In this document: positions 6,227-22,919 of the stretch, piece by piece
How positions within the stretch are numbered: position 1 is the stretch's first letter
How the letters are laid out: the number at the start of each line of letters is the position of its first letter
NCBI GenBank assembly: GCA_000004695.1
Contig: CM000151.3
Coordinates: forward strand, 4,000,001 to 4,064,000
DNA length: 64,000 nt
Reading direction: 5' to 3'
Source: Dictyostelium discoideum
Taxonomy: Eukaryota
The notes under the pieces: generated by a model
Seen by the model: only the letters and a program-made list of their open reading frames with translations
What the model was told of the DNA's origin: nothing
The model's database searches: none
Program-made: the position numbers and the translations under genes

Positions 6227-7290
6227 TCTAAAAATAAATAAATAAATAAATAAAATTTATATATATATATATATATTTCTATTTCTAAAATTTTCGGTTT
6301 AAATATATAATATATATAATTATTAATTGTGTGTTTATTATTTTATTTTTATTATTATTAAAAAAATGTTTTTACAATATTTTATTTTATTTTATTTTAT
6401 TTGAATATTACAATTATTTATTAATCTATAGATTTTTTTTTTTTGTATTTTATAAATATAAAAAATAAGTTAGAGATTAAGCATGGAGGAAAAAAAAAAA
6501 AAAAAAAAAAAGTTGTAAAAAAGCAGTAATCGTGTTTGTCCCAACAATTTTAAAAAAAACAAAAAAACAATAAAAAAAAATCTTTTTTTTTTTTTTTTTG
6601 TTGTTGGGTTTTTTTATATTTTTTTATTTATTTATTTATTTTTTTTTTTTTGAGGATTTTTTAGTATTATTATTATTATTATTTTTTTAATAAATATTTT
6701 TTTAGTTTTCTTTTTTTTTATACTCACTTTTGTTTATTATTTTCTTTTAATTATCATGAATTATTGTTTAATTTTTATTTTATTTTTTATTTTTCTTTTA
6801 TTAAAATTTTTTTTTTTTTTTTATATAATTTTGTGGTTTTTATATTTTTCAAACTGTATTACATATTTTCACCACACAATGCTTATGTTGTATTAAAGTG
6901 TGTGGGGTGTATTTATGTATGATATACGTATGTGAGTGGTAATGAAATTTTTTTGTGGTTATATATAAATATTTCCCATTTAAACCCCATTTTTTAATTT
7001 TTATATATTTTTCTTAATTTAAAAAAAAAAATAATAAAAAAAAAAAAAAAAAAAAAAAAAAATCACCAATGGTGATATGATTATTCTAAAAAAAGCCACA
7101 AATATTTACATAAACACAAAAAATTATTTATTTTTTTTATTTTAAGAAAATCCATTTTTTTTTTTTTTTTTTTTTTTATAAATTAATACACGATTAGAAA
7201 TATTTAAATAGATTTCGATTACTATTAATTTTAATAATTATTAATTTAAATTTTTTAATTTTATTTTAAATATATATATTTAAAAATATT

Positions 7291-7719
7291 TTATTTTGAA
7301 ATTAAATTTAAAGATGATAAAGTTTTATGATAATTCTTTTCCAATTCTTTATAGAGTTCAAGTATTTCTTCTAATCTATCTTTTTCAATCTCTTCTTTAT
7401 TTTTTTCAGGTCCTGGAGGTGTTGTCAATTCTTTAGGCTTGATATCGACTTTAATATTTGTACCATTTTTTTTATTTTCAATATCTTGTAACTCTTGTAA
7501 TTCCTCTTGTTCAAGACGTAAATTCTCTTGATTCTCTTCAGCCACTTGTTGTTTAATCTTTTCAATTTGTTCTGAATCACCAATATTTTGTTTATAAAGT
7601 CTTTTTTTAATTGAAATTCTATATTCTTTATATTTTGTATCTGAATTTGGTGTTCCTAAAAATTTACTAAATAAATAAATTTCTAAACAAAGTTTTGATT
7701 GTTTCTACAAAAAATAAAA

Positions 7720-7754
<35 letters not shown>

Positions 7755-8027
7755 ATTAATAAATGATATTTGAAAAAATTATTTATAAAATAAACATACA
7801 TATGGAATTAATAATTTCTTTCTAATTTCTTCAAATACAGATTTATTATTTGCATTTAAATCTAATATTACATTATCAAATAATTTTTCATCCATTATAT
7901 TCTTTAAATCAACATAATTTCTTAATAAATTAAATTCATCAGCTGGATCTTCAATTGTAATATCATAAATTGGTCCATAAAATCCATCATTTGTTTTATA
8001 ATATTGATAAATTGAATTAAATAAATA

Positions 8028-8068
<41 letters not shown>

Positions 8069-9014
8069 TATGTGTATATTTTTTTAAAATTCGACGATGA
8101 TAGTAATTATTATTATTATTAATTACTTACTTCCATGACCCATTCTTTGATAAGGTGGTAAAATTAAATATTGACTAATTCTAGCTCTAGTTTGTTCAGG
8201 ATGATGATAAAAATTATAAATTGTTGAATAACCTGTGATACCATATCTTTTTTCACCATCTATAATTCTCTTTTCAAAAATGAAAAATATATCCCAATTT
8301 GGATCATCAGTCCAAATATAGGAGGAACCATCTATATACCATAATACAAATATTTGAAGTTTCTCATGATATCTAAAAACGACTTGATCTGTTATCCTAC
8401 CAAAATAAATTTCATACTCTGTTTCTTTACCACTTTCTTTATCTATAATTGAATATTCATGTATTTTTTTACCAATTGGTTTAAATAATTTTTCTTTTTC
8501 TTCTATATACTTTTTTTTAAAATTTTATTAGTATGTATATATTAAAAATAATTGTTGTATATTTATAGATAATTACTTTATAAAATGATTGTTTTGAAAT
8601 TGGTGGATCTTGTTTTGAAAAAACTTTTAAAAATTCACCTTCAACATTTGTTAAATTTTTAGATTGTAATGTATAATTTGTATCAATATATGATGTTAAA
8701 GAACCTGCTCCCATATAGATATCAATTTTACAAGGTTCATATCCTTGAATTTTATCTTCATTAAATATTTGATGAGAATATGTTGGATGAAATGATATTG
8801 GTCCACCATCATCTTCTTTCTCTTCCTCTTCTTTTTTTTCTTTTTGTTCTTCTTCTTCACCTTCATCTTTTATATGTGCTTTATTTTCTTTGTCTTTATT
8901 TTCTTTATTATCTTTATTCTTTAATTCTTCAATATCCCAAACTAATTTAATATTGGTTACTTCATTTGCATCAAATGTTAAAAGTGTATTACTTGATTTT
9001 ATTCTATTTGTCAT
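7291..9014 (-). CDS. Histone acetyltransferase type B catalytic subunit (HAT1), 4 exons: complement(join(7291..7704, 7800..8029, 8131..8509, 8577..9014)); 486 aa.
   Basis: ATG at 9014. From memory, it aligns with human HAT1 along its length: FHPTYSHQIFNEDKIQGYEPCKIDIYMGAGSLTSYIDTNY ~ FFPEYTHQLFGDDETAFGYKGLKILLYYIAGSLSTMFRVEY; QYLILPPYQRMGHGKYLFNSIYQYY ~ QMLILPPFQGQGHGAQLLETVHRYY; KQSKLCLEIYLFSKFLGTPNSDTKYKEYRISIKKRL ~ KQHARRVYEILRLLVTDMSDAEQYRSYRLDIKRRL. The introns have GTAATT/GTAAGT/GTATGT donors and AG acceptors, are 67, 101 and 95 nt long, carry poly-A/T tracts, and the exon sum is 1461 nt (487 codons). Confidence 0.85.
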
Positions 9015-9423
9015 TTTATTTGTTTAGGTTTAAAAATTTTAATACAATATATATATAAAAAAAAAAAAAAAAAAAACTAATTAAAAAAATAAAAATAAAA
9101 AAATAAATTAAAAAAAAAAAAATTAAAAAAGAGGCGCTAAAAAAAAAAAAAAAAAAAAATTTATATGTATGTTGGGGCAACATACTAATTAAAAATATTA
9201 TTTTCAATTTTTTTTTAAAAAAAAATAAAAATAAAAATAAATAATAAATAATTTATTATTTTCCAGGAAAATTGAAAAAAATAAAATAATATATTTTGAT
9301 AATAATAATAATAAATAAAAATATAAACATTATGTAATTGTTTTTTAAAATTAAATTTGTTTAGATTTTTTCAAAATCTGTGAAATTTATTTTATTTTTA
9401 TTTTATTTTATTTTTTTTTTTTA

Positions 9424-9771
9424 TTACATAAATAAATCATCTTTGGTTTTTTCAACAAGAAATGGTGAAAAATTATACTTTCTTGTTATATATGCCGACA
9501 AATGATTATGTCTCTTTAAATTATATACCACAGGGGTGGATGGGTCTATTACAACATGCTTTATTTTATATGTGTTTCCATTCATTGCTGATAATGTATT
9601 ATGTATCAATTCTTCACCCCCACATATTCTTTTTAGTGAATTTGATGAACATTTATATTTCATTCTTAATTTAATCAATTTTCTCTTAACATGTTCATAT
9701 CCTTCCCAATTTTCAATATACTTTTGTTGATTTATATTTGTTTTTGTCTTTTTAACGCTTGTATGTGGCAT
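9424..9771 (-). CDS. Single-exon small hypothetical protein (115 aa, basic, with C-x8-C and several His).
   Basis: Clean ATG at 9769-9771 with an in-frame stop 6 codons upstream, and a TAA stop. The composition is not low-complexity (MPHTSVKKTKTNINQQKYIENWEGYEHVKRKLIKLRMKYKCSSNSLKRICGGEELIHNT…). I could not recognise any family. Confidence 0.3.
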   Translation of the reverse strand: MPHTSVKKTKTNINQQKYIENWEGYEHVKRKLIKLRMKYKCSSNSLKRICGGEELIHNTLSAMNGNTYKIKHVVIDPSTPVVYNLKRHNHLSAYITRKYNFSPFLVEKTKDDLFM

Positions 9772-9999
9772 TGTGTTTTTAAATATTTATTTTAATAATT
9801 AAAAAAAAAAAAATTTATATTTTAAAAAAAGAGGGGAAAAAAAAAAAAAAAAATATGTAATATATTATATTTTTATATTTATTTTTTTCAATTATTTGAT
9901 TTAGTTATTTCAATAGTTTTTTTATTTTTATTTTTTTAATATAATGTAACAACATGTTTTTTATTATTTTATTTTATTTTAAAATAAATAAATAAGATT

Positions 10000-10052
<53 letters not shown>

Positions 10053-10058
10053 AATTCA

Positions 10059-11285
10059 TTAAAATAATTTTTTAATAAATTTTTTAGCATCTTTACCAAC
10101 TTGTTGAGCAGTACTTGGATTCTTTTTAACATAACCATTAATGATAGAATAACCTTGTGGTGGGTATTTATTATGATAGATACCTAATGGTTTATTTTTC
10201 TTTGCTTTATGATCATTTTTCTTTTGTTTATTTTTTAATTTTTCATTACCTTTCTTTGAGATTGATGGAATGGAAGCTCTCCATCTTTCATAGTCATATT
10301 TATAAGTTGGTGGTACTAATTCTCTACCGAAATTGATTGCAGTAATTGCAATGTTAATCTCACCATGTGGGACAAAACTTAATTGTTCAGTAGTGACAAC
10401 TTCAATACCACGTGGGAAAGTGGAGGGGTCCAAAGCGACGAACCCAATCAAATCGTCGGAACCCACTTTATCATGGTCGTAAACTTCAATGATGACTAAA
10501 TCATTGACGCAATTGCCTAGATCGATATTAAAAGTTTCATTCCAAATTGGGTTCAATGATTTACTAATATGTCTAGTTTTATAATCTTTGCCATTGGTAG
10601 CTGGTGTTTTAATCTTTACATAAGGATCTGAAGTTCCACCAACATCTGCTGCAATTAAATTACGAGCTGATAAAATTTTAATTTGGAATGTTGAGATTGG
10701 TGATGATGTAAATCTTGCACCTGGTGGTAAAGGAATACTTTTATTTGGACTAATTAGTGGTGCATGTTGTTGTTGTGGTAATGGTGGTGGTACTCCAAAT
10801 GCACTTGGTGGTGGTGGTCCAAATGCACTTGGTTGTGGTGGATATCCAACACCTTGTTGTGGTGGGTAAGCACCGTATTGACCTGGTTGTTGGTGGTGTG
10901 GTGGTGGTGCGCCATAATGGCCTGGTTGTTGTTGTTGTGGTGGGTAAGCACCATATTGACCTGGTTGTTGTGGTGGATAGGCACCATATTGACCTGGTTG
11001 TTGTGGGTATCTATTTAAAAAAAAAAAAAAAAATTAAAAATATGAGATTAATAAATTATTAAGGGTGGTAGGATGTAAAAATTTCATCATTAAGGTGTAG
11101 AAGAGTGATTTTAGGCGGCGCTGGTGGGTTTGTGGCCTCTATTTTTTTATTTTCTATGCGACTCCCCCTATTATTTCCATTAATTTTTTTCTTTTGTATT
11201 TTTTTTTTTTTTTTTTTTTTTCCAAAAATGTCTGGGAAAAAAAAAAAATTAAAAAGAAAATAAAAAATATTTACCCGTTACTCAT
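10059..11285 (-). CDS. C2-domain protein with an annexin-VII-like P/Q/Y/G-rich N-terminal region. Main exon 10059..11010; tentative 11-nt first exon 11275..11285 (ATGAGTAACGG) and a 264-nt intron.
   Basis: The frame is open from 11010 to the stop at 10059, verified codon by codon. It reads YPQQPGQYGAYPPQQPGQYGAYPPQQQQPGHYGAPPP…, then the C2 domain IKILSARNLIAADVGGTSDPYVKIKTPATNGKDYKTRHISKSLNPIWNETFNIDLGNCVNDLVIIEVYDHDKVGSDDLIGFVALDP. This region has no ATG, TTG or GTG, which is why the ORF track starts only at 10556. An acceptor …aaatag|A at 11011/11010 needs 2 nt from an upstream exon. ATGAGTAACGG followed by GTAAAT at 11274 gives M-S-N-G-YPQQPG…. Confidence 0.55.
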
Positions 11286-12480
11286 ATTATTTATTTATTT
11301 AATAATAAAAAAAAAAAAGTTGATTTCTATAAAATTTTTTGTTTGAAAATTAATATAAGAAAACAAAAAAAAAAAACTATTTATATTAATTTTTTGTTAG
11401 TGTGAAAAATAAAAAAAAAAAAAAGAAAAAATAAATAATTAAATAAAATAAAATAAAATAAAAAAAATTAAATCCCACATAAAAAAATGGTTTGATTGAT
11501 TTATTATAATGTTAGTGTAAATGCTCCTCAATTGACATTATTTGTCTGAAAGTATTAAATTATTATTTAAAAAATCATTTTTTTTTTTTTTGACATTTTA
11601 TTCGAAAATGTAAAAAAGTGATTAAAAAAAATAAAAAATAAAAAATGAAAATAAAAAAAAAAAAAAAAAATAAAAAATTAAAAACAAAAAAAAAAAAAAA
11701 AAAAACAAAAAAAAACTCTGGTAGGAAAGTCTAATTAAACATCAACACACAACAACAACACTCCGTTATGAACTAAGAATTAATTAAGATAATAGAAAAT
11801 ATCAAAAAAAAAAAAAAAAAAAAATTAAATAAAGTTCTTTTTTTTTTTTTTTTTTTTTTTCACTTAAAAACTATTTTTAATTAACCTTACCACAAGGTTA
11901 AATATTTTATTTTTGTTTTTTTTTTTTAAAACATTTAGAATTTATTATTAATTTTTTTTTTTCCAAAATAATATATATATATTTTTTTTTTTTCTTTTAC
12001 ACAAAGAAATACAAATGATAAATTTTCTTTATATATAAGTATTCAACTAAATAATTTATCCATTGTTTTTAGTTTATATATTATCATATCTTTTTTTAAA
12101 AAATAAATATTAAAAAATGAATTCATCATTAAATTATATATATTTTTTTGAATTGAATTGAATTATATTTATTTTTTAAAATTTTGGAAATAAAAAATAA
12201 TAATAACCTATGAGAACTAATAGAAAAAAAATTTCTAAGAATCTGGTTTATTTTTGATTATTTTTTTTTTTTTTTTTTTTTTTTGGGTATTTTATCCAAG
12301 AGCAATGACACACTATAAAAAATTTTAAAAAAAAAATATTTGAAATTATCCATATCCACCCAATTTATAACACTAAAAAATACTTAAGTATTTTTATTTA
12401 TATTATGATTTACTATAAAAATGTTTTTTGTTTTTTTATTTTTTTATTATTTAATTATATTTTTATTTTTTATTTATTTT

Positions 12481-22919
<10,439 letters not shown>

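Follow-up and report, generated by a model that had tools for sequence, protein, structure and literature searches.

The 5' end of a gene for a C2-domain protein in Dictyostelium discoideum raises two questions, namely whether its coding sequence really begins with a tiny exon far upstream of the rest, and what a GC-rich island in the intervening intron represents. Here we report an analysis of this locus within a 64-kb stretch of genomic DNA (the window) and in orthologous loci from related genomes. An earlier note, made from the window sequence, had proposed the split gene structure, and had suggested that the intron might harbor an embedded regulatory element or a small RNA such as a snoRNA.

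Gene structure of the C2 locus

The gene is read from the minus strand, and its coding part comprises two exons separated by one intron:

11275..11285, minus strand: coding part of exon 1 of the C2 gene, ATGAGTAACGG (Met-Ser-Asn-Gl...), ending in phase 2
11011..11274, minus strand: intron 1, 264 nt, GTAAAT...AAATAG, 23.5% GC
10059..11010, minus strand: exon 2, the remaining coding sequence with the PQY-rich tail and the C2 domain, stop codon TAA at 10061-10059

A TAA just ahead of the acceptor closes the reading frame of exon 2, and the 316 codons that follow include zero methionines, which bears out the claim that the C2 frame has no start codon downstream of the acceptor at 11011 and makes a start exon further upstream obligatory. 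Exhaustive enumeration of open, phase-compatible stretches leading from an ATG to a GT within 1.1 kb upstream returned a single candidate, ATGAGTAACGG (11285-11275, minus strand), directly followed by the donor GTAAAT at 11274-11269. The tiny exon that had been proposed at 11285-11269, GTAAAT included, is hence the unique in-phase candidate, and it is both conserved and in agreement with the annotated protein XP_643975.1. Among the other possibilities, a first exon ATGGAAATAATAGGGGGA|GTCGCA has the wrong phase, and a start at ATGATGAAA... (11090) runs into a stop codon without a GT. The acceptor, t(17)aaatag, extends to 11011, with exon 2 beginning at the next base, 11010; donor 11274 and acceptor 11011 give the same intron length of 264 nt that had been stated before. 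The intron has a GT donor and an AG after a pyrimidine tract, and its removal makes an in-frame join to the 316-codon ORF. The spliced junction ATG AGT AAC GG|A TAC CCA encodes MSNGYPQQ, and the product starts with MSNGYPQQPGQYG. No ORFs of note were found across intron 1.

Exon 2 encodes a Pro/Gln/Tyr/Gly-rich tail located N-terminal to a C2 domain at amino acids 111-204 (~10691-10410), which was detected with Pfam model PF00168 (E=2.9e-23, 82.5 bits versus a cutoff of 22). The number of repeats in this N-terminal tail differs between strains, and the proteins vary from 310 to 330 aa.

A protein search with the spliced product led to a cluster including DDB_G0274273 of D. discoideum AX4. The 320-aa product is identical, residue for residue, to DDB_G0274273 (XP_643975.1, UniProt Q86J14), and thus the existing annotation already has the same 11-nt coding exon, 264-nt intron and exon 2. 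The gene structure is correct, was already known, and has been re-derived here from raw sequence. Literature searches on DDB_G0274273, Q86J14 and annexin GYPPQQ returned no paper. The analysis confirms the existing gene model as sound and deeply conserved, and the overall importance of this result is small.

Conservation of the micro-exon and of the upstream region

Orthologous loci were compared from D. firmibasis, D. citrinum, D. dimigraforme, two genomes labelled 'D. cf. discoideum', two more genomes labelled D. discoideum (L005, GCA_054859355.1; L006, GCA_054859385.1), and a second D. discoideum assembly (L008, GCA_054883475.1). In the alignment, the start ATGAG(T/C)(A/C)ACGG|GTA, an AT-rich intron and the acceptor side AG|ATACCCAC are kept in nine genomes. 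The L008 assembly encodes an identical C2 protein and shares 99.5% identity with the window over 7.2 kb, so that it confirms the sequence independently but does not count as an independent lineage. The L005 and L006 genomes are ~88-91% identical to the window in the intron region. Across window positions 6500-14600 their identity is ~85-91%, no closer than that of the 'D. cf. discoideum' assemblies, and several deeply diverged lineages, or cryptic species, seem to go under the label 'Dictyostelium discoideum'.

D. purpureum has a 13-nt micro-exon, ATGAGCGCTCAAG|GTAATT, followed by a 120-nt intron and AG|GTTATCCACCACAACAAGG... (acceptor side AG|GTTATCC), and its spliced frame is continuous via GYPPQQ repeats (at least eight, approximately nine) into the annotated protein. 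Since the micro-exon is found in the nine genomes and in D. purpureum, a coding micro-exon of 11-13 nt after the ATG is, judging from the aligned sequences, ancestral for the C2 gene in group-4 dictyostelids.

In D. purpureum the orthologue is annotated as DICPUDRAFT_44765, a 229-aa protein whose first residue is an internal Met (GL870947.1, L013 2088-2500). A longer product, MSAQ-GYPPQQ(x~9)..., is supported by the DNA, with the 13-nt micro-exon as its coding start and two more short introns (120 and 74 nt); the current annotation of this orthologue is without its N-terminus. The first intron is in phase 1 in D. purpureum versus phase 2 in the D. discoideum group, with the junction shifted by one base within a Gly codon.

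Upstream of the ATG, the alignment revealed one further gene-proximal feature:

11378..11386, minus strand: TATA-like box ATATAAATA, invariant or nearly so in nine genomes (alignment A2)

Downstream of this box, a T-run at 11376-11365 and then a conserved leader are present in the nine-genome alignment. A TATA element combined with oligo-dT is the classical arrangement of Dictyostelium core promoters, and by analogy we infer that ATATAAATA, the T-run and the leader form the core promoter of the C2 gene. Given these three elements, the physical first exon would be ~70-90 nt long with its 5' UTR, 11 nt of them coding. The description of an '11-nt first exon' thus holds for the coding part and not for the whole exon.

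Further upstream, at 11470-11615 on the minus strand (~185-330 nt upstream of the ATG), three blocks, ACATTTTCGAATAAAATG, AATAATTTAATACTTTCAGACAAATAATGTCAATTGAGG and ACATTATAATAAATCAATCAAACCATTTTTTTATGTGGGATTTAA, are invariant or nearly so in nine genomes, and the surrounding intergenic DNA is barely alignable. Upstream of the ATG, TTTAATACTTTC is kept in D. purpureum too, and a short uORF, ATGTCAATT..., is likewise kept upstream of the C2 gene. The three blocks were considered as a non-coding RNA and rejected, as their consensus fold has an energy of -4.5 kcal/mol with no compensatory pairs or covariation and no Rfam match. They are probably promoter or enhancer elements.

Two other observations concern the flanks of the gene. 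In the interval that separates the C2 gene from the 3,400-aa gene upstream of it, at ~11717-11790 (minus strand), a patch that is conserved and not AT-rich, cggagtgttgttgttgtgtgttgatgtttaattaGACTTTCCTACCAGAG, is followed by a very long T-run; GACTTTCCTACCAGAG is common to the window, L002, L004 and L007, and is partly present in L001. This patch may belong to the 3' end or the terminator of that upstream gene. On the other side, at ~9424-9771 (minus strand), a 115-aa ORF, MPHTSVKKTKTNINQQKY...DDLFM, lies between the C2 gene and the Hat1_N gene; it has no Pfam match, and it is called as a gene in the L008 annotation only, not in seven other orthologous loci.

The GC-rich island and the origin of the inserted DNA

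Within intron 1, the following features were located:

11114..11137, minus strand: GC-rich island ggccacaaacccaccagcgccgcc, a 24-mer with 18/24 G+C (75%)
11084..11089, minus strand: TGATGA, a box-C-like hexamer
11115..11169, minus strand: insert A, 55 nt, agggggagtcgcatagaaaataaaaaaatagaggccacaaacccaccagcgccgc, in the window and L008 only (alignment A1, columns 149-203)
11055..11114, minus strand: insert B, 60 nt, carrying TGATGA, in the window, L008, L005 and L006
11205..11252, minus strand: low-complexity hairpin made of a T-run, CCCAGACATTTTTGG and an A-run

The GC-rich patch that had been reported at 11115-11150 with ~70% GC is real, and its position is refined here to 11137-11114, at 75% GC. 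The reported TGATGA is also present, at 11089-11084, approximately 10 nt away from the ~11075 given originally. The ggccacaaacccaccagcgccgcc site is the sole place in the 64-kb window, coding regions included, where a 24-mer reaches at least 17 G+C, against an overall 22.8% GC; this uniqueness indicates that the island is more than chance composition.

The lengths of the first intron across genomes follow the presence of the two inserts:

Window and L008: 264 nt, inserts A and B
L005 and L006: 184 and 202 nt, insert B only
D. cf. discoideum (two genomes): 99 and 104 nt, neither insert
D. citrinum: 119 nt, neither insert
D. dimigraforme: 138 nt, neither insert
D. firmibasis: 142 nt, neither insert
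D. purpureum: 120 nt, neither insert

In the six more distant genomes, including D. purpureum, the insert-free introns are short and AT-rich (99-142 nt). In the alignment, all of the extra length falls at a single point, between GGAAATAAT and TTATTAA, and subtracting 115 nt from the window intron leaves 149 nt, a value in the normal range. The hairpin at 11205-11252 belongs to the older part of the intron, since its layout of T-run...TTCCA/TTGGA...A-run recurs in every orthologous intron, and is therefore older than the insert. As the island is absent outside the window and L008, and as the intron is of ordinary length without the inserts, the GC island is best explained as a young, lineage-restricted insertion in an old intron, not a conserved intronic element, on the basis of these sequence comparisons. 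The history is ambiguous: either two insertions were nested, or a single insertion of 115 nt was later shortened by 55 nt in the lineage of L005 and L006, and both routes cost two events.

We consider it likely that the island region is the 5' end of DDB_G0274273 carrying a young insertion that is spliced out with the intron. Under this explanation, transcription would start some tens of bases upstream of the ATG, a start placed by inference and expected near 11364-11340; exon 1 would contribute only ATGAGTAACGG to the coding sequence, and removal of the GT-AG intron would join GG|A, encoding MSNG-YPQQ.... Foreign DNA of about 115 nt, in parts of 60 and 55 nt, would have entered at one point, GGAAATAAT / TTATTAA, and it is because of this insertion that the intron is long (264 nt) and partly non-AT-rich. 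The inserted DNA would be transcribed in the pre-mRNA and discarded with the intron lariat, and it may have arisen as filler DNA at a repaired break or as the footprint of a mobile element. Several points weigh against the same explanation: the island is compositionally extreme, being the only 24-mer of its kind in 64 kb, it is carried by two near-identical genomes only, and no donor sequence was found, which makes 'junk' a default rather than a demonstration. The inserted DNA most likely has no function of its own, neutrality being the default adopted where no donor is matched. If so, the locus offers a small, clean example of a Dictyostelium intron growing by insertion of non-AT-rich DNA.

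Searches for a source of the insert covered several kinds of donor. A local templated origin was rejected: outside the insert itself, neither the window nor the orthologous loci contain a match of at least 11 nt to its GC-rich parts, and the sequence in common with the gene's own YPPQ codons, ACCCACCA, is just an 8-mer. The insert has no match in E. coli genomes and plasmids, and exact searches with two probes in 185,579 prokaryotic genomes and in JGI metagenomes were likewise negative. A viral source was also rejected: a 19-mer was found in four phage contigs, where the match does not extend into the flanks, and is thus attributable to chance.

These searches bear on the suspicion that the island arose as an error of assembly or cloning, or reflects bacterial or vector contamination in the reference, which its atypical, CpG-rich composition (GCGCCGCC) and its absence from most other genomes might raise. 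The identical 115 nt are present in the independent assembly GCA_054883475.1, so the island is not an assembly artefact, and bacterial DNA is contradicted by the missing matches in E. coli, plasmids, prokaryotic genomes and JGI metagenomes. An artefact or contamination has a vanishingly small probability in our estimate, and this reading is already effectively refuted.

A different account of where the insert came from, as distinct from what it does, is that it represents a single ~109-nt mobile element (MITE-like or a short retroposon) flanked by a 6-bp target site duplication AATAAT and bounded by imperfect terminal inverted repeats, AGGGGGAGT...ACCACCCTT, with the left 55 nt later lost in the L005/L006 lineage. 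The terminal AATAAT of insert B, the last 6 nt of the insert, is a copy of the 6 nt that precede the insertion point, and an AT-only word of 6 nt recurs at that spacing at 1.4% of window positions. The ends match as inverted repeats at 6/9 positions, a level reached by 0.7% of shuffles; the minimum free energy fold pairs both insert ends; and the empty sites in L004 and L007 read GGAAATAAT|TTATTAA. These statistics are, however, post hoc, with k=9 and the boundaries picked after looking; the inverted repeat is essentially GGG/CCC, the flanks are of low complexity, and a second copy is absent from the 64-kb window and ~57 kb of related loci. Moreover, such an element requires a deletion beginning exactly at its left edge. 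An origin as a single mobile element therefore appears possible but unlikely, to judge from the sequences compared.

Small-RNA and regulatory readings, and known systems

The preferred reading, a young insertion removed by splicing, was weighed against functions for the intron. A small RNA gene hosted by intron 1, in the form of a box C/D or H/ACA snoRNA, a Class I RNA or a miRNA, would draw on the ATGATGA at 11090-11084, on the CCC-containing AAACCCACCA, which is loosely DUSE-like, and on the locally raised GC content. The island and TGATGA, however, sit in segments of different phylogenetic distribution, and the GC island is missing from the two closest diverged genomes (L005 and L006), where ATGATGA reads AATGCTGA and GATGGTGA, respectively, and the hexamer becomes TGCTGA and TGGTGA. 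The box D sequence CTGA is absent from both strands of intron 1, which makes a canonical box C/D snoRNA impossible.

Rfam 15 gave no matches at the gathering score across the whole 64-kb window. A more permissive Rfam scan, at E<=10 over 10800-11900, produced nothing credible over the island and returned only low-complexity miRNA-family and lncRNA noise. The sole match overlapping the island was an lncRNA fragment (11 bits, E=7.1). Matches of miRNA families to the hairpin at 11205-11252 were rejected as a low-complexity artefact, the best scoring 23.7 bits where the gathering score is 80; the intronic miRNA loci published for D. discoideum are in other genes.

No stable hairpin beyond composition, as for an H/ACA snoRNA or a miRNA, was found in the insert or in the whole intron. 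The fold z-scores against shuffles were 0.32, -0.57, 0.36 and 1.63 for the insert on either strand and insert A alone, and the whole intron 1, at -0.92, is within the shuffle distribution. The DUSE reportedly follows the pattern [AT]CCCA[CT]AA of Hinas and Soderbom; this pattern, the TGTG box AAATGTG and CTGT are all absent from both strands of intron 1. ARAGORN found no tRNA or tRNA-like gene in the 64-kb window, and the A-box- and B-box-like stretches TAGAAGAGTGA and GGTTTGTGGCC, picked by eye on the plus strand, were rejected in view of mismatches in their cores, lack of covariance-model support and the differing age of their segments. Taken as an intronic snoRNA or small RNA, the suggested element lacks a box D, an Rfam match, a conserved TGATGA and excess folding, and we regard the chance that intron 1 hosts such a gene as very remote.

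The other suggested function, an embedded regulatory element, can be phrased as a newly acquired intronic cis-regulatory element, such as a G-box or CA-rich site for the developmental factor GBF, that changes expression of the C2 gene in the D. discoideum lineage. [quoted passage not shown] Such heptamers are, however, common, with 57 copies in the window versus ~34 expected, several of them in the gene's own coding repeats (YPPQ codons). Only a single full half-site is present in the island, the site is not conserved, and the gene has an unrelated proximal promoter that is strongly conserved upstream. The suggestion finds nothing in its support, and the island is absent from other lineages; from its sequence, a GBF-type role for the island appears quite improbable.

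Considered more broadly, the proposition that the ~115-nt insert is either an uncatalogued short mobile element, or a lineage-specific small-RNA or GBF-type module affecting expression of DDB_G0274273, strikes us as highly improbable from the sequence. Should the insert turn out to belong to a dispersed repeat family, or to act as a regulatory site in this lineage, it would add a minor detail to the genome biology of Dictyostelium.

Comparison with known systems places these features as follows. The annotated DDB_G0274273, a C2 domain-containing protein on chromosome 2 of AX4, agrees with the gene described here in its coding exon, intron and exon 2, with no difference. D. discoideum annexin VII (synexin, nxnA) has N-terminal GYPPQQ repeats. 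The C2 protein resembles it by analogy in having a Pro/Gln/Tyr/Gly-rich repetitive N-terminal tail before a module that binds Ca2+ and lipid, and at least eight copies of the annexin VII-type GYPPQQ occur in the D. purpureum orthologue of the C2 gene; unlike in annexin VII, what comes after the tail is a C2 domain and not a set of annexin repeats, and the likeness of the two tails may be compositional only.

Intron-hosted box C/D snoRNAs of animals, yeast and plants share with this locus the intronic position, the sense strand, a RUGAUGA-like heptamer and raised GC; the intron described here differs from them in having no box D, terminal stem, covariance-model match or conservation, and its C-like box is mutated in the nearest relatives. 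Class I RNA genes, according to passages of PMC7919456, have a DUSE, which contains CCC, ~60 nt upstream and an optional TGTG box, and the same passages describe RNAs that start with (A)AG, end with CUGU, and have a terminal stem and an 11-nt motif. The locus is similar to DUSE-driven ncRNA genes of Dictyostelium (Class I RNAs and snRNAs; Kjellin et al. 2021, PMC7919456) in its CCC-containing, A/C-rich motif and AT-rich context, but it lacks an exact DUSE and a TGTG box, and an (A)AG...CUGU RNA with a terminal stem is likewise missing ~60 nt downstream. Finally, the MITE-like small repeats of D. discoideum (thug-S, PMC6161686), to which the insert is likened by description, are also short non-coding inserts with a flanking direct repeat and weakly complementary ends, and the insert differs from them in that neither the window nor the related loci contain it a second time.
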